Shown here: piece by piece, positions 27,481-35,170 of the stretch
Numbering within the stretch: the first letter of the stretch is position 1
Layout: the number at the start of each line of letters is the position of its first letter
IMG/VR virus record: IMGVR_UViG_2671181011_000016
From: a virus
Taxonomy: Duplodnaviria > Heunggongvirae > Uroviricota > Caudoviricetes
DNA length: 53,208 bases
Strand: one strand, 5' to 3'
Translations under genes and position numbers: made by a program
The notes under the pieces: generated by a model
What the model was told of the DNA's origin: nothing
What the model saw: only the letters and a program-made list of their open reading frames with translations
Database searches by the model: none

Positions 27481-27951
27481 TTATTCTTTGCGTAAACACT
27501 GCGTTTTGATGTAGCCCTGAAGTGCGGTTATCTTCGCGTCTTTCTCTTTTAGTTGTTCTCTGAGGGATAGATAAGCCGATTCAGCGTCGGGAGTGAGTCT
27601 ACAGGCGGCTCCATCAATGGCGCTGGCGGATCCGGCGGGGTCGGACACTCGCACGGGTATTGCGTTGACGCGCAACCGGATAGTACCGTTATCAATACCA
27701 GTGCGCAGATCGGCAATGTCAGATCTGATAGCTTTAATCTCATCGTGATACCTCTTATCAAGTTTTGACAGTTCGGCGTTTCGCTCCTTCATTTGCTGTA
27801 TGGTGTTACTCGCTGTTTTTAATGCGCCTTGCGTTGTCGTTAGTTCTTCCTGTAAGCGCGTTACAGCTCCCTGTGTCTGACATAGTGCAGCGGTAAGCCC
27901 GACGATAATGCAAACAACCACGGCGATGATTAACGTCTTCACCTTGTCCAT
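27481..27951 (-). CDS. Rz: i-spanin Rz
   Basis: 156 aa; N-terminal TM helix then coiled-coil periplasmic domain; directly downstream of the endolysin with overlap; contains embedded Rz1. Confidence 0.8.
27549..27743 (-). CDS. Rz1: o-spanin Rz1 (lipoprotein, embedded in Rz in another frame)
   Basis: 64 aa from ATG with RBS AAGAGG: signal peptide with lipobox LSGC, Pro-rich mature part; fully inside the Rz ORF. Confidence 0.75.
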   Translation of the reverse strand: MRLKLSDLTLPICALVLITVLSGCASTQYPCECPTPPDPPAPLMEPPVDSLPTLNRLIYPSENN

Positions 27952-28430
27952 TTCTCACCCCATTCGCAAACGGCATATTCAACATCGCGGCGGTTTACCA
28001 GGCCTTGCCACTTCTTACCGCCAGCGTATACCCAGCGCTTAAGCTGTGCGCACGCTTCTGATTTCTTGCCGTCATTGAGTAGCTTTAATAAGGTTGATGT
28101 TTTGAAGTTGGTTGCGCCTACGTTATAGGCGAAGGAATAAAGTGCTGCGCGGGTAAAATCTGATATTTCGACTTTGATATATGGGTCAATCGCTTTTGCG
28201 GTCTTATGTAGATCTTTGTTCAACAAAGCATCGCATTCTGATTGCGTGTAAGTCTTCCCAAGCATGATGTCTTTTCCGGTGTGACCGTAGCAAACAGTCC
28301 ATACACCAACAACATCACGATAAGGATCGTATTCCACGCCCTCTAATGGCTTAATCATCACCGCCGCAATAGCGATCGCCCCACCAGCCGCCGCCGCAAC
28401 AATCTTGTTTTTCAGCGATTGGCTAATCAT
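27939..28430 (-). CDS. SAR endolysin (T4-type lysozyme, GH24)
   Basis: 163 aa; N-terminal weakly hydrophobic Ala/Gly-rich SAR segment; catalytic-type E..D..T spacing ([16 protein letters not shown]); ATG abuts holin stop. Confidence 0.85.
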
Positions 28431-28631
28431 TTACTTATTCCCCATTCGCGCGTCGTGTTCCTCTTGCGCTCGCTTGTTCTCCTGTGATTTGAAGTAATAA
28501 TTAACGGCAAATGTGCCTACGGTTGATAAGATACCCACAAAGACGGCAATGTCATTGATGGTTATCGCGCCGAAAAAAGCAGTTACGGCCCCAGTCACAT
28601 ACGCACACGCCTCCCGTATTCTGTCGAACAT
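28431..28631 (-). CDS. holin (pinholin-like, two TM domains)
   Basis: 66 aa; two hydrophobic segments and charged C-terminus; resembles phage 21 S-type pinholin; paired with a SAR endolysin; RBS GGAGGA. Confidence 0.8.
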   Translation of the reverse strand: MFDRIREACAYVTGAVTAFFGAITINDIAVFVGILSTVGTFAVNYYFKSQENKRAQEEHDARMGNK

Positions 28632-28643
28632 AGATTTTCCTCC

Positions 28644-28673
28644 AACAAAACAAAAACCCGGCGCGGGGCCGGG
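28644..28673 (-). terminator. intrinsic terminator immediately upstream of the holin gene (tR'-like)
   Basis: minus-strand hairpin CCCGGCCCCGCGCCGGG followed by TTTTTGTTTTGTT, about 10 nt before the holin RBS. Confidence 0.7.
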
Positions 28674-28701
28674 TAGTTACAGTTTCGCATTGTTAGGTAA
28701 T

Positions 28702-28730
28702 ATTTTAATCTGTTTGTTTTCGACCCACAA
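28702..28730 (-). promoter_or_regulatory. candidate late promoter (pR'-like)
   Basis: minus strand -35 TTGTGG, 17-bp spacer, -10 TAAAAT, 25-40 nt upstream of the terminator hairpin. Confidence 0.45.
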
Positions 28731-28738
28731 ATACGGCT

Positions 28739-28966
28739 TTAACGGTAAGGGCCAAGCAAACGAACAAGCCATTCTTTGTATTTGGCGGCGACGTGTTTCG
28801 GTGCAAAATATCCTTGCACTTCCTTACCGCCTCGCCACTCCCTTCTAAATTCGCATTCGTTTTGATACCCCTTTCCGCTTTTACTATCCAGCCAGCAAGC
28901 AGGCGAGTAACCTTTTTCACTCCCGAACCGATGCCATATTAATGACAGCAAAATCATTTCTTCCAT
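28739..28966 (-). CDS. hypothetical protein
   Basis: 75 aa ORF; stop codon begins the 18-bp duplicated junction element. Confidence 0.45.
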   Translation of the reverse strand: MEEMILLSLIWHRFGSEKGYSPACWLDSKSGKGYQNECEFRREWRGGKEVQGYFAPKHVAAKYKEWLVRLLGPYR

Positions 28967-28987
28967 ACTGCCCCCACAAATACGGCT

Positions 28988-29164
28988 TTACCGCTTCCTG
29001 TATATCAGGCCATTATCAAGCAGCATTTGCATGTGCCAACGATCCACCATGCTTGATTCCCAGCATTTATTCTCTGGATACTGAATCATCACCTTATCAC
29101 CTTTAACCAAATAGGCGATATTAAATAACATGTGCAAATAAATACCGTCTTCGATCTCGTTCAT
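28988..29164 (-). CDS. hypothetical protein
   Basis: 58 aa; ATGA overlap with upstream gene; stop codon begins the second copy of the 18-bp element. Confidence 0.4.
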   Translation of the reverse strand: MNEIEDGIYLHMLFNIAYLVKGDKVMIQYPENKCWESSMVDRWHMQMLLDNGLIYRKR

Positions 29165-29391
29165 AGCTCGCCAACCTTTACCAGTTCACCAGCATCAAGA
29201 AATATTTTAATTGTTTCTCGCGTCGTCTTAATGATTGGTGCTACCCACTCGCCACCGCCAACACGGATACGAATATCATCACCTTCCACGCGGTAAAACA
29301 GCCTGTCGACTACTGTTGCTGCGTACACGCCATCTTCAATCATTTTTGCGCTCCTTAATGGCTCGCATGATGTTAATACGCATAGCGTCAC
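29161..29391 (-). CDS. hypothetical protein
   Basis: 76 aa ORF in a tightly packed series. Confidence 0.4.
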   Translation of the reverse strand: MTLCVLTSCEPLRSAKMIEDGVYAATVVDRLFYRVEGDDIRIRVGGGEWVAPIIKTTRETIKIFLDAGELVKVGEL

Positions 29392-29578
29392 TGAATGCGT
29401 ATATAGTAATGAAAGGCCAGAAGACTAGCTCGAACCAAATAATGCCGTCACTATCAACAGCTTTCTGAAAAGCGCCCATTAAAATGACGCCAGCCAGGTA
29501 AATGATAACTACCGCAATAATAAGGCATTCAATCATAATCATCCTCATCGTCTTCATGTTCAGCCAGGAACTCATCAA
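29336..29578 (-). CDS. hypothetical membrane protein
   Basis: 80 aa (start uncertain); two hydrophobic segments. Confidence 0.4.
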   Translation of the reverse strand: MMSSWLNMKTMRMIMIECLIIAVVIIYLAGVILMGAFQKAVDSDGIIWFELVFWPFITIYAFSDAMRINIMRAIKERKND

Positions 29579-29843
29579 CCACGCGGCAAGTCACTGGCGG
29601 GATGTATTCGAAATCATCAGAATCGAGATCAAGCGTCCGGCTGTCGCCGTCATCGTCCAGCGTATTCATCCCTAATTCACCGAAAGGGCCGTACCCAATA
29701 CAGCCCAGGTATTCGCATCCAGTAGTAAAGCCAGGGTATTCGCCTTTACAACGGATTTTGTAAGGTCTATTTGATGCGCTCAATTTTTGATGCTCCGCTT
29801 TCTTCTTCAGTAATTTTGTACTCTGCCACCAGTTCCGCACCAA
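29529..29843 (-). CDS. hypothetical protein
   Basis: 104 aa ORF; acidic C-terminus; start uncertain. Confidence 0.4.
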   Translation of the reverse strand: MVRNWWQSTKLLKKKAEHQKLSASNRPYKIRCKGEYPGFTTGCEYLGCIGYGPFGELGMNTLDDDGDSRTLDLDSDDFEYIPPVTCRVVDEFLAEHEDDEDDYD

Positions 29844-30090
29844 GCAATTTCACTTCAGCATCAGGGTAAGGATTAAGTACCAGTGATGCGAAAACAAAAT
29901 GTCTGACGTGATTCACATTATCAAGGTCTTTCACGTCAAAAGGCGGCTCAGTTAAGTGGAAGCATTTAACGTGCGCATCGTCTTCAGTAGCCACACGGAA
30001 ACATGCGCCACGCTCACCTGCGAATTGTCCAAAGTCTTTATTTTCTGGAAAAGATCCACGGAAAACTTTAACGCTGATAAATTTAGACAT
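29767..30090 (-). CDS. hypothetical protein
   Basis: 107 aa ORF. Confidence 0.4.
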   Translation of the reverse strand: MSKFISVKVFRGSFPENKDFGQFAGERGACFRVATEDDAHVKCFHLTEPPFDVKDLDNVNHVRHFVFASLVLNPYPDAEVKLLGAELVAEYKITEEESGASKIERIK

Positions 30091-30093
30091 TGT

Positions 30094-30348
30094 TTATTCT
30101 CCTTCATAAAGCACAGTAACCAGTTCAGCATCAATTAGCGTGTTATGATCTGTATAAAACCCGTGGCGCAGAATTGAGGCAAGGCCGGCCACTTTACGCC
30201 ACATAGGGGTCGATTCGTTCAGATATTCTTTCTCCCTTTTTTCGCTGTATACCAATTCATAAAACCGACCACGATTAACATCTTCAATCACGCGGATATA
30301 TTTACCATCAAATCGGCTATTACCGCGCCATAGTCTGATCACAACCAT
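30094..30348 (-). CDS. hypothetical protein
   Basis: 84 aa ORF. Confidence 0.4.
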   Translation of the reverse strand: MVVIRLWRGNSRFDGKYIRVIEDVNRGRFYELVYSEKREKEYLNESTPMWRKVAGLASILRHGFYTDHNTLIDAELVTVLYEGE

Positions 30349-30350
30349 AA

Positions 30351-30650
30351 TTAAAACTCCGCACCAGGTAAGCTACGCGCTTTGTTTACCGCATCGTGCT
30401 TTAACGATAAACTTGCGTAATAATTCATAATCCCCATATTACCGACTGGTATTTCATTATTTTCTGCCTTTATTCTTAATAACTGGTTTTTAGTGAAAAT
30501 CCTGTCTCCATCGGTGATATATAACCAGTCGCAGCGCTTACCAACTACAACATGAGATCTGCCTAAACTGTCTTTAAATTCATAATTGCAGAAGACATCA
30601 CCTTTAGGCACTTCAACAAAACAGCACGCTATGAATTTATCGCTTTTCAT
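30351..30650 (-). CDS. hypothetical protein
   Basis: 99 aa ORF. Confidence 0.4.
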   Translation of the reverse strand: MKSDKFIACCFVEVPKGDVFCNYEFKDSLGRSHVVVGKRCDWLYITDGDRIFTKNQLLRIKAENNEIPVGNMGIMNYYASLSLKHDAVNKARSLPGAEF

Positions 30651-30691
30651 GATTCAACCCTTCTGGTTTGATTGGCCATCCGGCCCCGCGC

Positions 30692-30832
30692 TTATCCTTC
30701 TTTGCCTCCTTTGAACCCCAGACACTCCGCGTATTCGTCAATGCTTAATGCTTCTTCACCTGGTGCCAGTAGTTCGAAGTATCTGGCATATAACTCAAAC
30801 ACCCAGGCAGGATATTTTGCGTTTGCGTTCAT
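30692..30832 (-). CDS. hypothetical small protein
   Basis: 46 aa from ATG with RBS GGGAGG (MNANAKYPAW...); first gene downstream of the 30865-30908 promoter. Confidence 0.45.
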   Translation of the reverse strand: MNANAKYPAWVFELYARYFELLAPGEEALSIDEYAECLGFKGGKEG

Positions 30833-30864
30833 CTTCTTGCCTCCCATCCGCCTTTCTGTGCCCA

Positions 30865-30908
30865 TATATAACAAAACGGCACTGCCGTAACAATGCCATT
30901 TTGTATAC
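30865..30908 (-). promoter_or_regulatory. sigma70-like promoter with upstream GTATACAAAATGG motif
   Basis: minus strand: motif (30896-30908), -35 TTGTTA, 17-bp spacer, -10 TATATA (30865-30870). Confidence 0.55.
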
Positions 30909-30916
30909 TTTGTGAT

Positions 30917-31740
30917 TCAGATCACGTTATTATCACAAGCGAAAGCCTCGCAACTTTCAGAACAACTACCTGAATCAAACTCTTTCTTGTTAATAATGCT
31001 GCTGCGTATCTCTTCTGTTTCCTCCAGCCTGAACATTGCTATTACGTCCTGCAATGCCATTTTGTTGCGATACATTTCCGGCTTACCTTCCTTGCAATCA
31101 TGTTCTGCAATGCAACTACAAAACTGGTCATATAGTTCAGGTTCATCCCTTGCTGCCAATGCCAACTTCTTGTTGCTCTTCTTAATGCAGAAAACACAAT
31201 TACCAAGATGTTCGGGGATCTCTAAATCAAATGACTGCCCTGACCACCAATCAATAATATCCTGCTTCTCAAAGTCACTTATATCTGCCAGATAGTGAAA
31301 ACCCTCCCTTTCGTGTAGTCTGCGTGGCTCATCTGCCCTAATACCTAACCAGCGTTCATAATTGCCTTTGCCATAGTGTTCATCACAATACTTTTCAAAA
31401 GGTAGTTGTTTCATCCTGTGAGTACAGAATGCCCCGCCGATATAAGGATGGCCATAATGTTCCAGGATTCTCCGCCACGGAACAAGGTCACATCTTATAT
31501 CATCAATACCAATGATCTCGTAACTGAATTTACCGTATTTAATTGCAGGAGGAACGCAGCGGAGGCAAGTTATTTTAATGTTAAAATGTGAGGATAAATT
31601 CTTTATGAACTCGTATGTTTTAGGGTGTTCACCCCTGTATCCATGAAGATAACCTCTGCGTCAGGGTGAATTTTCAATACCTCTAGAGTCATGCAAGCAG
31701 AAGTCCTTCCACCACTGAATGATATTACTTGATGTTTCAT
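30917..31740 (-). pseudogene. PAPS reductase-like (PP-loop ATPase family) gene disrupted by a 1-nt frameshift
   Basis: N-terminal frame MKHQVISFSGGRTSA...FMDTG stops after 45 codons; reading continues in another frame (EHPKTYEFIKN... to 30917); shift lies at a G4 run (31633-31636); a fifth G would restore FMDTGGEHPKTYEF. Confidence 0.65.
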
Positions 31741-31756
31741 AGGCAACAACCTTAAA

Positions 31757-32023
31757 TCAGAAAACCCCTTTATAATCTGCCGTGTATTTTGCCACTAATT
31801 TCCAGTCACAATAGTTTTCCATGTCGCGCGGTTGCCAGCCTCTCATGCCTACAGCACCACGCACGCCGTGGCGACGATAATTATCGTTATAGTCAGCTAC
31901 GCACCATGGCTGAAGTACAAACATATAATTGGCCTCGTTAACCAGGATCGCCATCTGCTTTCCTGTTGCCTTATCTTTCGCCCGGAAATAACTCACCCTG
32001 ATTTTCATTTTTAATAACCTCAA
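31757..32023 (-). CDS. hypothetical protein
   Basis: 88 aa ORF. Confidence 0.4.
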   Translation of the reverse strand: MRLLKMKIRVSYFRAKDKATGKQMAILVNEANYMFVLQPWCVADYNDNYRRHGVRGAVGMRGWQPRDMENYCDWKLVAKYTADYKGVF

Positions 32024-32219
32024 TCAACATTTCTTCTTCCAGGTTGGCAGGACGTTTACGGAACACGCCAGCGAAGACAAGATCTTCCAGTAGGTCTTTA
32101 CTTTTGAATAACCACTCTTTCATTACTATCCCGTCATCACTGCGATATACGACGCCGTTTTTAATAAAATAAAAAGTACGGGTGTTTGTCTGGAGGTATA
32201 GATCTTCGTAAACATCCAT
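31971..32219 (-). CDS. hypothetical protein
   Basis: 82 aa ORF; start uncertain. Confidence 0.35.
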   Translation of the reverse strand: MDVYEDLYLQTNTRTFYFIKNGVVYRSDDGIVMKEWLFKSKDLLEDLVFAGVFRKRPANLEEEMLIEVIKNENQGELFPGER

Positions 32220-32223
32220 GATA

Positions 32224-32451
32224 TTAACCCTCGACTACTTGCAGCCCGCGCCCCTTGTCGCCGACGAAGTCTGCCAGGCTGAACGTATACGACCATGCCG
32301 GATTAATGTAATGGTCATCAGCGCCAGCGGCAATTAGGTCAGCACCGTTAATCACGCAAGTTACATCATCACTATGAACGACGTTAACCACCTTACCAAC
32401 AACCTGTTTCAGTGACGGATAACCGTGATCGTGCAAGAATTTTACTTTCAT
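32224..32451 (-). CDS. hypothetical protein
   Basis: 75 aa ORF. Confidence 0.4.
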   Translation of the reverse strand: MKVKFLHDHGYPSLKQVVGKVVNVVHSDDVTCVINGADLIAAGADDHYINPAWSYTFSLADFVGDKGRGLQVVEG

Positions 32452-32726
32452 TAATCTGTCTCCCAGCGTTCAATGCTGATTAAGAAGTCACGGATAGCAT
32501 GGCGTTCGTCGCGCGTTGGTTTACGTTTCCGGTAGATCCTGAAATCGAACCATTCTTTTTCCTGCTCAAAATCCAGGTCGTAAGCAAGCGCCTCAATGTA
32601 TCCGCATTCGTGATACCAGTACGCAACGCCAGCACGAACAAAAAAGCGGGTTTTATCCCGCTTGTGCTCATAGATACGCATATTCACCCCGTTATGCAAT
32701 TGTGTAGCTGTCAACCAGCTTTTCAT
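32451..32726 (-). CDS. hypothetical protein
   Basis: 91 aa ORF. Confidence 0.4.
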   Translation of the reverse strand: MKSWLTATQLHNGVNMRIYEHKRDKTRFFVRAGVAYWYHECGYIEALAYDLDFEQEKEWFDFRIYRKRKPTRDERHAIRDFLISIERWETD

Positions 32727-32922
32727 CTTTCATTCTGGCAAGCTGTGCGATGTTCATCGTGTAGCCACCTTCTAAGAAAAACCACTCCGCAGTCCTGCGA
32801 CGAAAAGCAATATCATCATAGTGATGCGTCCATGTAATAATCGCCACGCGTTTTCCATCAGTGGCGAACATAGATAACGCATTATCAACAACGTCGATAG
32901 CCTGCCAGATTTTTAATTCCAT
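32692..32922 (-). CDS. hypothetical protein
   Basis: 76 aa ORF. Confidence 0.35.
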   Translation of the reverse strand: MELKIWQAIDVVDNALSMFATDGKRVAIITWTHHYDDIAFRRRTAEWFFLEGGYTMNIAQLARMKDEKLVDSYTIA

Positions 32923-33278
32923 GATTTATCCCCGTAGATCTTGAATAGTTCACACGCTTCCTGATTTTCAAATATATTCATATGCAGGTCACGCAGGCGG
33001 CGCATTGTGCGGAAGCGCGGCCTGAACTCCTGGCTACGTTTAATGTATTTGCCGCCAATTGAATAAATATGCCCGTATGCGTACCATCTGTTACCTACCC
33101 ATATATCATATTCTTTGCCTTCGTAATTAAATTTTATCGTTAGCTCGCCAACCTCAACTATTAACCCTTTGTCAATAATGTCATTAAGCATTTCGTCCCA
33201 TTCTTTGAGGAATGGTTGTTGATAAAAACCAAAAAGCGTATTTACAGCATGGCAGAGATAGTCAATGATTATTTGCAT
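32913..33278 (-). CDS. hypothetical protein
   Basis: 121 aa ORF. Confidence 0.4.
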   Translation of the reverse strand: MQIIIDYLCHAVNTLFGFYQQPFLKEWDEMLNDIIDKGLIVEVGELTIKFNYEGKEYDIWVGNRWYAYGHIYSIGGKYIKRSQEFRPRFRTMRRLRDLHMNIFENQEACELFKIYGDKSWN

Positions 33279-33282
33279 ATTA

Positions 33283-33495
33283 TTACCACATCATATAATA
33301 AACGTTCTCGTCAGCTAACATGTCAGCCACATCCTGCGTCATGTGTCTGGCCTCAAGGAAAAAATCCTCACTATGCCATTCCCTCACAAGCATACGCGCC
33401 CATTTACGGCGCTGGCGTTTATTACGTCGCAGATCATCAAAAGCCTTTAATGCTTTGTCGTATGCCCTTACAAGGCGCTTACGGTTACTTTTCAT
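33283..33495 (-). CDS. small basic protein, tandem paralog 1
   Basis: 70 aa; MKSNRKRLVRAYDKALKAFDDLRRNKRQRRKWAR...; about half of the first 40 residues are identical to the adjacent gene. Confidence 0.5.
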   Translation of the reverse strand: MKSNRKRLVRAYDKALKAFDDLRRNKRQRRKWARMLVREWHSEDFFLEARHMTQDVADMLADENVYYMMW

Positions 33496-33507
33496 TTTTC
33501 ACCCCAA

Positions 33508-33696
33508 TTAACCAAATAAATCCTCAGCAACAACATCATAAGCCTGATCAGCGGTTAATTTAGTATCACCAAAATTCCATTCCTTTGCTAATTTCCTGGC
33601 TATTCGTCTTCTCTTGCGCTTATTGTTTTTCAGGTCGTCAAAATAACACAAACATTTATCATACGCCCTTACAAGGCGCTTAAGGTTACTTTTCAT
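33508..33696 (-). CDS. small basic protein, tandem paralog 2
   Basis: 62 aa; MKSNLKRLVRAYDKCLCYFDDLKNNKRKRRRIAR... Confidence 0.5.
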   Translation of the reverse strand: MKSNLKRLVRAYDKCLCYFDDLKNNKRKRRRIARKLAKEWNFGDTKLTADQAYDVVAEDLFG

Positions 33697-33699
33697 ATT

Positions 33700-33999
33700 T
33701 TAAAACCTATATTGCCAATAAATATCGCAGTGGATAGCGAAAACCTTAACAGGTTCGTCACCAAACAAAGGATGCTGAATCGTCTTTATTGTGTACCCCA
33801 TGTAAGGGAGAATAAGAATCCGCTTCTTATCGTCGTTTGCAGGGTATCCCAATTTAAGAATCAATCTTGTGTAGTCGCGTCCCTCCAGACGTTTTCGCCA
33901 ATAGTCATTATAAAGCCGGTATTCCTCCACCTTCTTTCCCGCGCGTATGGCGTGGAAGTATTCACCTTTTAAATTCAAATGTAAGTGTTTATTTGCCAT
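33700..33999 (-). CDS. ASCH / DUF3850-like (PUA-fold) protein
   Basis: 99 aa from MANKHLHLNLKGEYFHAIRAGKKVEEYR, a pattern typical of ASCH-type domains; track ORF extends to 34035. Confidence 0.45.
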   Translation of the reverse strand: MANKHLHLNLKGEYFHAIRAGKKVEEYRLYNDYWRKRLEGRDYTRLILKLGYPANDDKKRILILPYMGYTIKTIQHPLFGDEPVKVFAIHCDIYWQYRF

Positions 34000-34321
34000 C
34001 GCTATGATCCTGTAAACAGTCGTTATAGCCTTCAATGTATCCAGTTATCCCAGTGTTGCTAACTGACCAATCAGCCGAACGGCGTTTGATGGCCTTGTCC
34101 ATAGTCATAGCGTCAACCGGATCTGTTAGGTCTATATATTTCCGCAATTCTGTAACTATTACCGCCCTTAATTGTTGTGCATTTGAGTACGTCCTTGCTT
34201 TGTCAGTTATTCCGTTTACAAGCTCCCTAAATTCATGATCCTTTAATTTAGGCTTCATTGTCGTTGCTCCGTCCGTAAATATGTACTGGCTCAACTGGCA
34301 CGGCTGGCAATTCACCATCAT
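33989..34321 (-). CDS. hypothetical protein
   Basis: 110 aa ORF; true start probably an internal Met (MKPKLKDHEF...). Confidence 0.35.
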   Translation of the reverse strand: MMVNCQPCQLSQYIFTDGATTMKPKLKDHEFRELVNGITDKARTYSNAQQLRAVIVTELRKYIDLTDPVDAMTMDKAIKRRSADWSVSNTGITGYIEGYNDCLQDHSDGK

Positions 34322-34448
34322 TTAACGCGCTTGCCATACCCAATATCAATCGCGCTTCTGCACCAGTGACTTTCTTACACCATGCACCGCCCGTTTTATC
34401 TTCGAACAAGATAACGGCAAACTTATCGTTTATTTCCAGCTTATCCAT
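34248..34448 (-). CDS. hypothetical protein
   Basis: 66 aa ORF. Confidence 0.35.
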   Translation of the reverse strand: MDKLEINDKFAVILFEDKTGGAWCKKVTGAEARLILGMASALNDGELPAVPVEPVHIYGRSNDNEA

Positions 34449-35170
34449 TATTCACCCCGCGTCACTCGTTTAATTTCGTTATCTGCCCGCGCCTCTTCTT
34501 TGAACAATTCAGCAATGGCGTCTTCATAGAAAACCCGGTATTTCTTCCACCATGTTGATCGGCTTACCGGAAAAACAAGCTGATTAACCGCCTGCCGGAC
34601 AAGATCTACAGGGAAACGCGAGTACCCGCGCCCGCCGCAGTGATGGCACGTTTTGAACACTGGCATTTCCGCCGCTTCACTGGCTGCTTTATCCGGTACT
34701 TCGCCACGACCCTTGCATTGTTTACAATGATTGCGAACTGTCCCATGCCCCTTGCATTTTTTGCAAAGGTGTTTTTCTCCGTATTCGTCAAACGTAAATT
34801 TATATCCGCCGCACTCCACGCAAGTTTTTTCCGTCGCGGCACTCTGGCAATAATCCCGAAACGCGAAAACGGCAACAAGAATAATGAGATCATTGCGTTT
34901 GGCCTCGTCCAGTTCCATAACGTATTCATAATCTTTTGCCATAGCCCTTAAACGCTCTGTAAGCAAAACTACGGCCTTATGTTTTTCTGCTTGTGATAGT
35001 TCCATCTTCCCTAAAAAAGCACTGTAACCAAGCTCTACGCGCGATTGCGCCATACCTGCGGCAGTTAGTGCATCCGTAGTATTAAGCGCATCCGGGGACG
35101 TGCCCCGGCTTTCATCTGATAAACGCGGCGATTTTGGGAAGTGGAATTTTAGAATTGATTCCAAATTCAT
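34448..35170 (-). CDS. zinc-finger protein with four CxxCxGxG repeats; possible antiterminator Q (phage 82/21 type)
   Basis: 240 aa; CVECGGYK, CKKCKGHG, CKQCKGRG, CHHCGGRG; lies downstream of ninG/rusA as Q does in lambdoid phages; Q assignment is positional. Confidence 0.4.
   Translation of the reverse strand: MNLESILKFHFPKSPRLSDESRGTSPDALNTTDALTAAGMAQSRVELGYSAFLGKMELSQAEKHKAVVLLTERLRAMAKDYEYVMELDEAKRNDLIILVAVFAFRDYCQSAATEKTCVECGGYKFTFDEYGEKHLCKKCKGHGTVRNHCKQCKGRGEVPDKAASEAAEMPVFKTCHHCGGRGYSRFPVDLVRQAVNQLVFPVSRSTWWKKYRVFYEDAIAELFKEEARADNEIKRVTRGE

Follow-up and report, generated by a model that had tools for sequence, protein, structure and literature searches.

A putative Q-gated late promoter, pause and terminator module ahead of the lysis genes in an mEpimmI-group coliphage, 5.7 kb from its Q gene

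The short non-coding region upstream of the holin gene in the phage sequence analyzed here, a stretch of 53,208 nt referred to as the window, probably represents the start of the late operon of an mEpimmI-group phage, in which a Q-gated promoter, pause element and terminator are followed by the lysis genes. We put the probability of this reading at about 0.8. By its sequence, the window is a member of the published mEpimmI (mEp021) group of temperate coliphages. The lysis gene set is ordinary and the antitermination would be of the standard Q type, and the sole unusual point is that Q lies 5.7 kb off and does not adjoin its promoter. Every element named in a first-pass annotation of the region was found again where it had been placed, all on the minus strand, and its description of the whole as a well-known architecture is correct for the lysis cassette at the family level, as judged by Pfam, PDB and phrog matches. 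The features are as follows.

34448..35170, minus strand: Q antiterminator gene, 240 aa, Q-lambda family
28739..34447, minus strand: accessory block of about 20 small co-oriented ORFs of unknown function, from ORF tiling
28730..28725, minus strand: -35-like hexamer TTGTGG, a 3/6 match to TTGACA, poorly conserved
28708..28719, minus strand: A-rich spacer block AAACAAACAGAT, directly 5′ of the -10, candidate Q-binding element (QBE)
28707..28702, minus strand: -10 hexamer TAAAAT of a putative pR′, invariant in 51 genomes
[quoted passage not shown]
28674..28644, minus strand: intrinsic terminator (tR′ equivalent), 7-bp stem with 6 GC pairs, 5-nt loop and T-tract
28643..28639, minus strand: Shine-Dalgarno sequence (SD) GGAGG, followed by the holin ATG at 28631
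28631..28431, minus strand: holin, 66 aa, two transmembrane domains (TMDs), class II, HP1 family, putative pinholin
28430..27939, minus strand: SAR endolysin, 163 aa, T4-lysozyme-type muramidase with catalytic E30/D39/T45
27951..27481, minus strand: Rz i-spanin, 156 aa, with an N-terminal TMD and a coiled-coil region
27743 (ATG)..27549, minus strand: Rz1 o-spanin lipoprotein, 64-aa precursor, wholly within Rz in another frame

The promoter proposed earlier, TTGTGG-17-TAAAAT upstream of the terminator, is present at the sequence level, with a 17 nt spacer and a weak -35. A consensus promoter scan did not list the putative pR′ site because its -35 matches at only 3/6 positions, and the site has no extended -10. 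In relatives the -35 is replaced by TTGTAG, TTGTAT or TCGCGC, the last of these in about one quarter of the related genomes. Transcription is predicted to start at 28695 or 28694 on the minus strand. A feature that the first-pass annotation had left unmentioned, the hexamer AACAAT, begins 7 nt past the -10, and both the hexamer and its flanks (CT..GCGAAA) are invariant in the group genomes.

In lambda the QBE sits in the promoter spacer, where a Q monomer is bound to a 13-bp asymmetric site (PMC9388147). The block AAACAAAC..GAT between the -35 and -10 of the window is a candidate QBE by position only, and it is without resemblance to the lambda QBE. Column identity across the AAACAAACAGAT block is 72-100% in 40 unique sequences, with 9 of the 12 columns invariant, and conservation decays further upstream. 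An 18-mer that spans the -10 and the candidate QBE occurs nowhere else in the window. No covariation was found between Q allele (240 or 242 aa) and promoter variants; each allele occurs with every variant.

The predicted terminator consists of the hairpin ACCCGGC-CCCGC-GCCGGGT (28674..28656) and, after it, TTTTGTTTTGTT. Among terminator-like sites in a 10-kb scan it ranks first, with a fold of -23.7 kcal/mol and z = -3.0. Hairpin and T-tract abut the SD, consistent with the intrinsic terminator previously described directly 5′ of the holin ribosome binding site. In the 51 loci the hairpin loop takes 10 variant forms, while the stem never varies. A terminator is annotated here in the records of mEp021, mEp010, mEp013, mEp044 and mEp515. 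It is TERM_5 of the mEp021 GenBank record, which by its numbering appears to be t5 of the group paper, where t5 is counted among the terminators demonstrated experimentally (PMC11893012). The hairpin starts about 21 nt past the first base of the SDPE, the shortest such distance among about 55 modules measured.

The predicted terminator fold is lengthened by pairing between the A-rich leader and the U-tract, and it covers the first two G of the SD. This could suggest a real promoter with a gate that is independent of Q, the hairpin being a constitutive attenuator or an element that affects RNA stability or holin translation. Extended pairing of this kind is, however, typical of A-tract/hairpin/U-tract terminators, there is no informative covariation, and both the SDPE-like hexamer and the Q-lambda homologue would be left unexplained; we regard a Q-independent gate as very improbable.

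The combination in which a -10 is followed after 6-7 nt by a second -10-like hexamer, and by a terminator no more than 100 nt away, is found once in the 53-kb window, where about 0.01 is expected by chance (200 Markov simulations), although it should be noted that the pattern was defined after the site was seen. A scan of 596 Gb of genome contigs with TAAAAT-N7-AACAATGCGAAA returned 49 matches in unrelated taxa. It is uninformative because 49 is of the order of magnitude of chance: with 18 specified bases, about 17 matches are expected at equal base frequencies, and more in AT-rich DNA. No Rfam family matched, either in the whole window at the gathering threshold or in the leader at a permissive E-value. 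A distant-mode DNA search of a phage collection with the 129-bp leader region found only seven mEp-group records, together with chance hairpin matches. Complete E. coli genomes carry the module in 8 of 5426 cases, each as a single unannotated copy.

Each of 51 group genomes has a single, nearly invariant copy of the module (about -25 to +62), although the gene that flanks it upstream is drawn from a set of at least 5 unrelated ones and two holin alleles are found downstream. The non-coding leader is more conserved in nucleotides than the adjacent coding sequence. Modules of the same kind are found in relatives whose Q proteins are 32-48% identical. A sister lineage (Q 48% identical) has TATAAT, 6 nt, AATAAT, a terminator and the holin at the equivalent displaced position. 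In a comparison of 67 lambdoid contigs with Q 36-42% identical, a script located a -10/SDPE/terminator module 32-78 nt past the Q stop codon in 53, and in the remaining 14 the module is visible by eye. The SDPE takes the forms AATAAT, AATGAT, AACGAT, AACAGT and AACACT in relatives. The likeness to a lambdoid pR′-tR′ arrangement that had been suggested for this site thus gains from a Q-lambda homologue, a pause-like AACAAT hexamer, an invariant single-copy module and the same module in relatives, and a pR′-tR′ gate appears to be the best description of it at the sequence level.

The 240-aa Q protein is, by sequence, a true Q-lambda homologue. It matches Pfam PF03589 (101 bits) and phrog_127, and it aligns with the lambda Q structures PDB 7UBM, 7UBN and 4MO1 (E = 5e-39) over residues 1-114 and 148-238. 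The alignment takes in the N-terminal RNA-exit nozzle segment (PMC9388147) and the C-terminal body. Between the two aligned parts, the zinc-ribbon arm is enlarged by 33 aa (residues 115-147), an insertion that adds a second CxxC pair, giving four CxxC motifs vs two. A tblastn search of the window for the Q-lambda and Q21 types found a single Q-lambda-type gene and no Q21-type gene. The -10 lies 5740 nt from the Q stop codon (34448), a value close to the 5.5 kb given earlier for the separation of the gate from the only Q-like gene.

In the canonical cassette the Q gene directly precedes its pR′ transcription unit (PMC9388147). Here the interval is filled by the accessory block, the first ORF of which abuts the Q stop codon; 10 of the ORFs have no Pfam match. 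Content and length of the block (1.9-6.7 kb) vary among relatives, and the block probably belongs to the early, Gp17 (N-like)-antiterminated transcription unit. The distance from Q to the module is correspondingly 1.9-6.7 kb in the 51 group genomes, being 1.9 kb in mEp021 vs 5.7 kb in the window, and Q is likewise displaced in the one sister lineage. Remoteness of Q is thus a property of the whole lineage, 1.9-6.7 kb vs the 32-78 nt of the lambdoid relatives. A second Q target near Q was sought, and in no group genome does the 1 kb around the Q stop codon contain a double -10 or SDPE-plus-terminator module. We consider the displaced Q a feature of layout and not of mechanism.

Co-oriented genes run without a break from Q to the hairpin, with no gap after Q, and this could be taken to mean that there is no local late promoter. 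The hairpin would then end the early (pR/Gp17) operon, polymerase antiterminated by the N-like protein would read into the late genes, and either the conserved upstream block would have some other function or the site of Q action would lie elsewhere. The weak, unconserved -35 that the promoter scan did not call agrees with such an account, as does the Gp17 antitermination documented in the mEpimmI group (PMC11893012). Against it, the TAAAAT/N7/AACAAT sequence is invariant and matches the -10/SDPE sequences located directly after Q in lambda and the 67 relatives. In addition, a Q-lambda homologue that is intact and conserved must have a site to act on, and the 8 kb downstream of Q contain no other candidate module. 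Finally, nucleotide conservation in the leader exceeds that of the adjacent coding sequence. Transcription without a local late promoter is therefore quite unlikely.

Sequences, homologies, conservation and comparative positions are what was observed; from them we infer promoter activity, pausing, termination and Q dependence for the module, and the Q-gated late operon would work as follows. RNA would start at approximately 28695/28694 on the minus strand, from a sigma-70 promoter made up of the weak -35 TTGTGG and the -10 TAAAAT. By analogy with lambda pR′, AACAAT, lying in the first transcribed bases, would make the polymerase pause close to the promoter with sigma still bound. Without Q, termination at 28674..28644 would yield an RNA of about 45-48 nt and leave the lysis and morphogenesis genes silent. 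Q made from the early operon 5.7 kb upstream would bind the promoter region, with AAACAAAC..GAT as its candidate QBE, and load on the paused complex, which would enable polymerase to pass the gate terminator and later terminators. The read-through RNA would encode the holin, the SAR endolysin and Rz/Rz1, and then the terminase, head and tail genes on one strand; all large downstream ORFs do share the strand of the lysis genes. Dependence on Q need not be absolute, since the terminator could also be passed by polymerase that comes from upstream after antitermination by the N-like Gp17.

Comparison with lambda shows both the common plan and the points of departure. Lambda has the homologous Q and the same order of a -10, 6-7 nt, an AAYRAT hexamer, a terminator, and then holin, endolysin, Rz/Rz1 and morphogenesis genes; its sequence is TAAATT, 6 nt and AACGAT, compared with TAAAAT, 7 nt and AACAAT here. 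Lambda makes a 194-nt 6S RNA. The leader described here differs in being very short, with a terminator that abuts the holin SD and a weak -35, and the zinc-ribbon arm of Q is enlarged, with four CxxC motifs. In lambda, fewer than 50 nt separate the Q stop codon from the pR′ -35, whereas Q is 5.7 kb from the promoter here. Phage 21 (curated record OL657228) has a similarly compact promoter-SDPE-terminator leader, an established precedent for placing the terminator within +50 of the start of pR′. The R21 endolysin is 65% identical to the SAR endolysin of the window, and in phage 21 Rz1 is also embedded in Rz. However, Q21 belongs to an unrelated Q family and adjoins pR′, tRNA genes lie between the terminator and S, and the holin of the window is not S21-like and is without a dual start.

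Phage mEp021 (GenBank MH706966), a published member of the group, has the same lysis genes at 92-95% DNA identity, the same terminator (TERM_5) and the same Q. Holin, lysozyme, lysis protein, Q and terminator are annotated in its record; the late promoter, pause element and Rz1 are not. The mEpimmI group paper is silent on late regulation and lysis (PMC11893012), and the only published regulatory work found for the group concerns the early N-like antiterminator. The mEpimmI phages are common gut coliphages that were described only recently, and the annotation given here fills a gap in their late regulation by adding the putative late promoter and pause element, the terminator and Rz1; the remaining biology is standard. 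The group also indicates that a Q-lambda-type antiterminator can stay 2-7 kb from its target, across a freely recombining gene block. This is a natural counter-example to the textbook layout with the Q gene next to pR′, and a convenient system in which to study whether Q has to be close by and how short a leader that loads Q may be.

A more speculative interpretation applies to the mEpimmI group and the sister lineage together. The Q-dependent late promoter may have been uncoupled from Q and have lost a functional -35, so that late transcription would possibly be non-lambda-like, with the promoter now at the far end of a hypervariable, early-transcribed accessory island. The enlarged double zinc-ribbon arm of Q might help to recruit or retain sigma-containing polymerase at a promoter nearly devoid of a -35; alternatively, Q might capture at the pause element polymerase that arrives from the upstream operon. 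We regard this uncoupling as unlikely. If true, it would make the group a natural test of whether Q must be near its site. Old reports indicate that lambda Q prefers to act in cis, and the uncoupling would bear on that preference.

Turning to the lysis genes, the holin was earlier described as a small two-TM protein and a pinholin. The first part is borne out by hydropathy analysis, proposed at the time as transmembrane prediction, which reveals two hydrophobic stretches in the 66 aa, at about residues 8-26 and 27-47. By sequence the protein is an HP1-family class II holin: it matches Pfam Phage_holin_2_3 (PF16080) at 54.1 bits vs a cut-off of 28.8, falls in phrog_20 (holin), and has tblastn matches that carry a class II holin annotation. 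The HP1-family holins of Salmonella phages ST104 and SPN9CC and Burkholderia phage phi1026b are the best family match, with about 40-50% identity over the two TMDs. The designation as a pinholin, and with it the pinhole size of the lesion, is an inference by analogy, given the HP1 family membership of the holin and its lack of pairwise similarity to S21. In its favour are the two TMDs and a TMD1 (residues 8-26) that is Gly/Ala/Thr-rich (53% G/A/S/T), weakly hydrophobic (mean hydropathy 1.4) and SAR-like in sequence. The S21 connection did not hold up, as the S21 family model PF04971 scores 22.9 bits, below its 26-bit cut-off, and a BLASTP comparison with verified S21 gives no alignment. A dual-start holin/antiholin motif is also absent, there being a single Met start (MFDRIRE) and no in-frame start codon between the SD and the ATG. 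The protein may instead be an ordinary large-hole class II holin whose depolarization of the membrane still frees the SAR endolysin. SAR endolysins are known alongside non-pinholin holins, e.g., in phage P1. The HP1 membership, the low S21 score, the lack of a BLASTP match and the single start all point this way. The small size, the SAR-like TMD1 and the pairing of the gene with an R21-type SAR endolysin argue against it, and we hold the large-hole alternative to be possible but doubtful.

The putative pinholin would act with an endolysin exported by Sec and tethered in an inactive state through its SAR segment; triggering of the two-TM holin would depolarize the membrane and release the enzyme, and the Rz-Rz1 spanin would then disrupt the outer membrane, as judged from homology. 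The endolysin matches Pfam Phage_lysozyme (PF00959, E = 3e-45), is about 65% identical to R21, and has PDB matches to 3HDE/3HDF (R21) and 4ZPU (RrrD) at E of about 1e-64 (3HDE, E = 4e-64). Both the SAR-like N-terminus and the lysozyme triad spacing attributed to it earlier are evident. The motif E30-x8-D39-x5-T45 is present, and residues 5-27 align with residues 4-26 of the R21 SAR domain (3HDE). The N-terminal hydrophobic, Gly/Ala-rich segment spans residues 8-29, with a mean hydropathy of about 1.5 and 45% G/A/S/T. Relative to R21 in the 3HDE alignment, there is a 6-aa deletion in the linker after the SAR segment.

The start of Rz and the end of the endolysin gene overlap by 13 nt. Rz matches PF03245 above its cut-off (E = 4e-24) and phrog_13, with 32-34% identity to Rz of phage 21 and lambda. 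An ORF with a HEAAH motif downstream of Rz has no Pfam or PDB match. Rz and Rz1 are, by sequence, an embedded two-component spanin. The coordinates and the PF06085 match (32.5 bits vs a 27.9 cut-off) agree with the earlier report of a Pro-rich Rz1 with an LSGC lipobox lying within Rz in another frame. The predicted mature form has 41 aa, 27% of which are Pro, and the protein falls in phrog_3198, with 40-41% identity to Rz1 of phage 21 and lambda.

The region comprises the elements and genes listed here together with the unlinked Q gene. Its content is confirmed, and the interpretation is supported that an mEpimmI phage here has its lysis cassette and the control point of its late operon.

28730..28725, minus strand: -35-like TTGTGG (sequence reading), then a 17-nt spacer
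28707..28702, minus strand: -10 TAAAAT (sequence reading), then ATTACCT
28694..28689, minus strand: second -10-like hexamer AACAAT, then GCGAAACTGTAACT
28674..28656, minus strand: hairpin ACCCGGC-CCCGC-GCCGGGT, then TTTTGTTTTGTT
28643..28639, minus strand: Shine-Dalgarno (SD) GGAGG, then AAAATCT and the holin ATG at 28631
28631..28431, minus strand: holin, 66 aa (ORF listing, sequence reading)
28430..27939, minus strand: endolysin, 163 aa (ORF listing, sequence reading)
27951..27481, minus strand: Rz, 156 aa, overlapping the endolysin gene end by 13 nt
ATG at 27743, minus strand: Rz1, 64-aa precursor, an ORF inside Rz in another frame
35170..34448, minus strand: Q, 240 aa, homologous to lambda Q chains 7UBM/7UBN

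Seven phages of the mEp021/mEpimmI group share 92-95% identity with the region; the group consists of recently described Nus-dependent, non-lambdoid temperate coliphages (PMC11893012). At the homologous places the mEp021 GenBank record has a class II holin, a lysozyme, a lysis protein, a "late gene regulator Q" and a terminator (TERM_5), with no annotation of a late promoter or Rz1. Late regulation and lysis are not treated in the group paper, which lists t1, t2 and t5 as experimentally demonstrated terminators (PMC11893012). Since TERM_1 to TERM_5 are numbered in the same order as in the paper, t5 is probably the gate terminator.

The first-pass annotation had placed a TTGTGG-17-TAAAAT promoter and an intrinsic terminator just 5′ of the holin ribosome-binding site, and both sequences are present. 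The hairpin is the highest-ranked terminator-like site in a 10-kb scan and folds with its flanks at -23.7 kcal/mol (z = -3.0). The TTGTGG-TAAAAT site went unlisted in the promoter scan because its -35 matches only 3 of 6 positions; this element is poor, and about a quarter of relatives have TCGCGC instead. A composite pattern was taken from lambda: a good -10, 6-7 nt, a second -10-like hexamer and, no more than 100 nt on, a strong terminator. The gate is its single occurrence in the 53-kb window, against ~0.01 expected per window from simulated sequence for a pattern defined after the site was seen.

Four lines of evidence support the annotation's comparison with lambda pR'-tR', i.e., a putative Q gate. 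The first is the layout: lambda pR' has TAAATT, 6 nt and AACGAT, and the window TAAAAT, 7 nt and AACAAT. The second lambda hexamer is the sigma-dependent pause element where Q loads (PMC9388147). The second line is conservation among 51 group genomes (the seven GenBank phages, 43 of 45 IMG/VR contigs and the window), each with one copy of the module. With the first base of the -10 as reference, the sequence is almost invariant from about -12 to the T-tract inclusive, and the hairpin shows ten different loops with no stem changes. Upstream of the module, conservation drops to background level, since the module borders on at least five unrelated genes; in two group genomes a different holin allele starts right after the T-tract. 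The third line is a sister lineage whose Q is only 48% identical, with the same architecture in different sequence (TATAAT, 6 nt, AATAAT, terminator, SD, HP1-family holin). The fourth comes from 67 lambdoid viral contigs with Q 36-42% identical. A script found a -10/AAYRNT/terminator module 32-78 nt past the Q stop in 53 of them; the remaining 14, inspected by eye, have CTAACGATGGG directly after Q, with lambda-like long leaders or imperfect hairpins. Three more prophages (Citrobacter, Serratia, Xenorhabdus) show the same Q-adjacent arrangement, and the CTAACAATG of the window fits the series of lambdoid relatives.

No Q-binding element (QBE) could be defined; AAACAAAC..GAT, which is conserved, qualifies as a candidate by position only. 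The two Q alleles show no covariation with promoter variants. Polymerase coming from upstream and modified by Gp17, the N-like antiterminator of the group, may also read through the terminator.

A recombination joint forms the upstream edge of the module (28731-28745, minus strand, and the equivalent in the group loci); the small genes that end just before it differ between genomes, with at least five unrelated ones, and most of the ends fall at a shared TAA(A/C)GCCGTATTTGT. The gene there in the window (28739-28966) is unlike that of the seven aligned GenBank phages.

The pause element's first base and the start of the hairpin are ~21 nt apart, a leader far shorter than that of lambda and below the 28-101 nt range of the 53 scripted lambdoid modules. 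This is not a new principle, since the curated record of phage 21 puts its terminator between +2 and +50 relative to the pR' start. In the predicted fold, the A-rich leader (CUAACAAUGCGAAA; 28639-28696, minus strand) base-pairs with the U-tract of the terminator as well as with the first two G residues of the holin SD. At one position, after UUUUUG, the window has U for the usual C, turning a G-C pair into G-U, a change too uninformative to call structure.

The gate and the lysis cassette belong to already known kinds, and the unusual point is their layout. In the canonical cassette, Q is followed by the adjacent transcription unit (PMC9388147). Here the Q stop lies 5740 nt from the -10, close to the ~5.5 kb first noted, and the gap spans 1.9-6.7 kb across the 51 group genomes. 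The following ORF directly adjoins the Q stop codon, leaving no room for a promoter there, and in no group genome did the script used for the lambdoid relatives find a module within 1 kb of Q. The whole lineage shares this peculiarity, a variable gene island between Q and its site; as Q acts in trans, the separation poses no mechanistic problem.

The interval holds ~20 small, tightly packed, co-oriented ORFs without Pfam matches, whose content varies by phage. At least one strong terminator lies inside it (32663..32644), so it most likely belongs to the early operon and would be read by Gp17-antiterminated polymerase, as inferred from PMC11893012. This hairpin, AAGCGGGATAAAACCCGCTT with a T-tract (minus strand), lies inside a small ORF; in the mEp554 record, terminator T9 is inside small ORF mEp554_55, at a similar position by annotation only. 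A 165-aa ORF (30917-31414, minus strand) has no Pfam match, matches only the C-terminal part of PHROG phosphoadenosine phosphosulfate reductase families, and is preceded by ~340 bp (31415-31756) without a minus-strand ORF of at least 50 aa. It may be a truncated gene.

Judged by homology, the window Q is a real lambda Q homologue, matching 7UBM/7UBN at E = 5e-39 over residues 1-114, which include the segment forming the RNA-exit nozzle (PMC9388147), and 148-238. Residues 115-147 are a 33-aa insertion relative to lambda Q, which lies in the zinc-ribbon arm and adds a second CxxC...CxxC pair. The four CxxC(xGxG)-like motifs in total give a weak DnaJ zinc-finger Pfam match, and in the longer Q proteins of Citrobacter, Serratia and Xenorhabdus prophages the insertion at this position is larger still. 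By tblastn, the window has neither a second gene of Q-lambda type nor one of Q21 type.

As far as sequence can show, antitermination like that of lambda Q would here be joined to a phage 21-style SAR-endolysin lysis system. All four lysis proteins score above curated Pfam thresholds (Phage_holin_2_3, Phage_lysozyme, Phage_lysis for Rz, Rz1), with consistent PHROGs assignments, and the features first read in them are borne out. The endolysin has a Gly/Ala-rich, weakly hydrophobic N-terminal segment followed by E30-x8-D39-x5-T45, and at E ~1e-64 it matches the sequences in the crystal structures of phage 21 R (3HDE, 3HDF) and RrrD (4ZPU); the SAR segments align, and the linker behind has a 6-residue deletion. 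Rz has an N-terminal transmembrane domain (TMD) by hydropathy, and Rz1 a lipobox LSGC and a mature part of 41 aa with 27% Pro. The SAR-to-catalytic-domain linker (residues 24-28; 28346-28361, minus strand), shortened relative to both R21 and RrrD, reads ...IKPLEG in the window and ...ITGPSGNDGLEG in R21, the phage 21 endolysin.

The holin is a small two-TM class II holin of the HP1 family, with hydrophobic segments at residues 8-26 and 27-47, the first Gly/Ala/Thr-rich. It is not a member of the family of S21, the phage 21 holin, because BLASTP with S21 (query 100% matched to the phage 21 record) gave no alignment, the S21 Pfam model scored below threshold and the holin has no dual start. Pinholin behaviour is suggested by the small size, the SAR-like TMD1 and the pairing with an R21-type endolysin. 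Two group genomes (L025, 13996-14208, and L048) have a divergent 70-aa holin allele starting MIATLITRTREA...; divergence begins directly after the terminator T-tract, and the endolysin is nearly unchanged.

Directly downstream of Rz/Rz1, a 194-aa ORF (26618-27202, minus strand) has a HEAAH (HExxH-like) motif and a very Lys/Glu-rich tail. Pfam and PDB searches gave no match; its only match is phrog_1365 (unknown function), and it is conserved across the group as mEp021_49.
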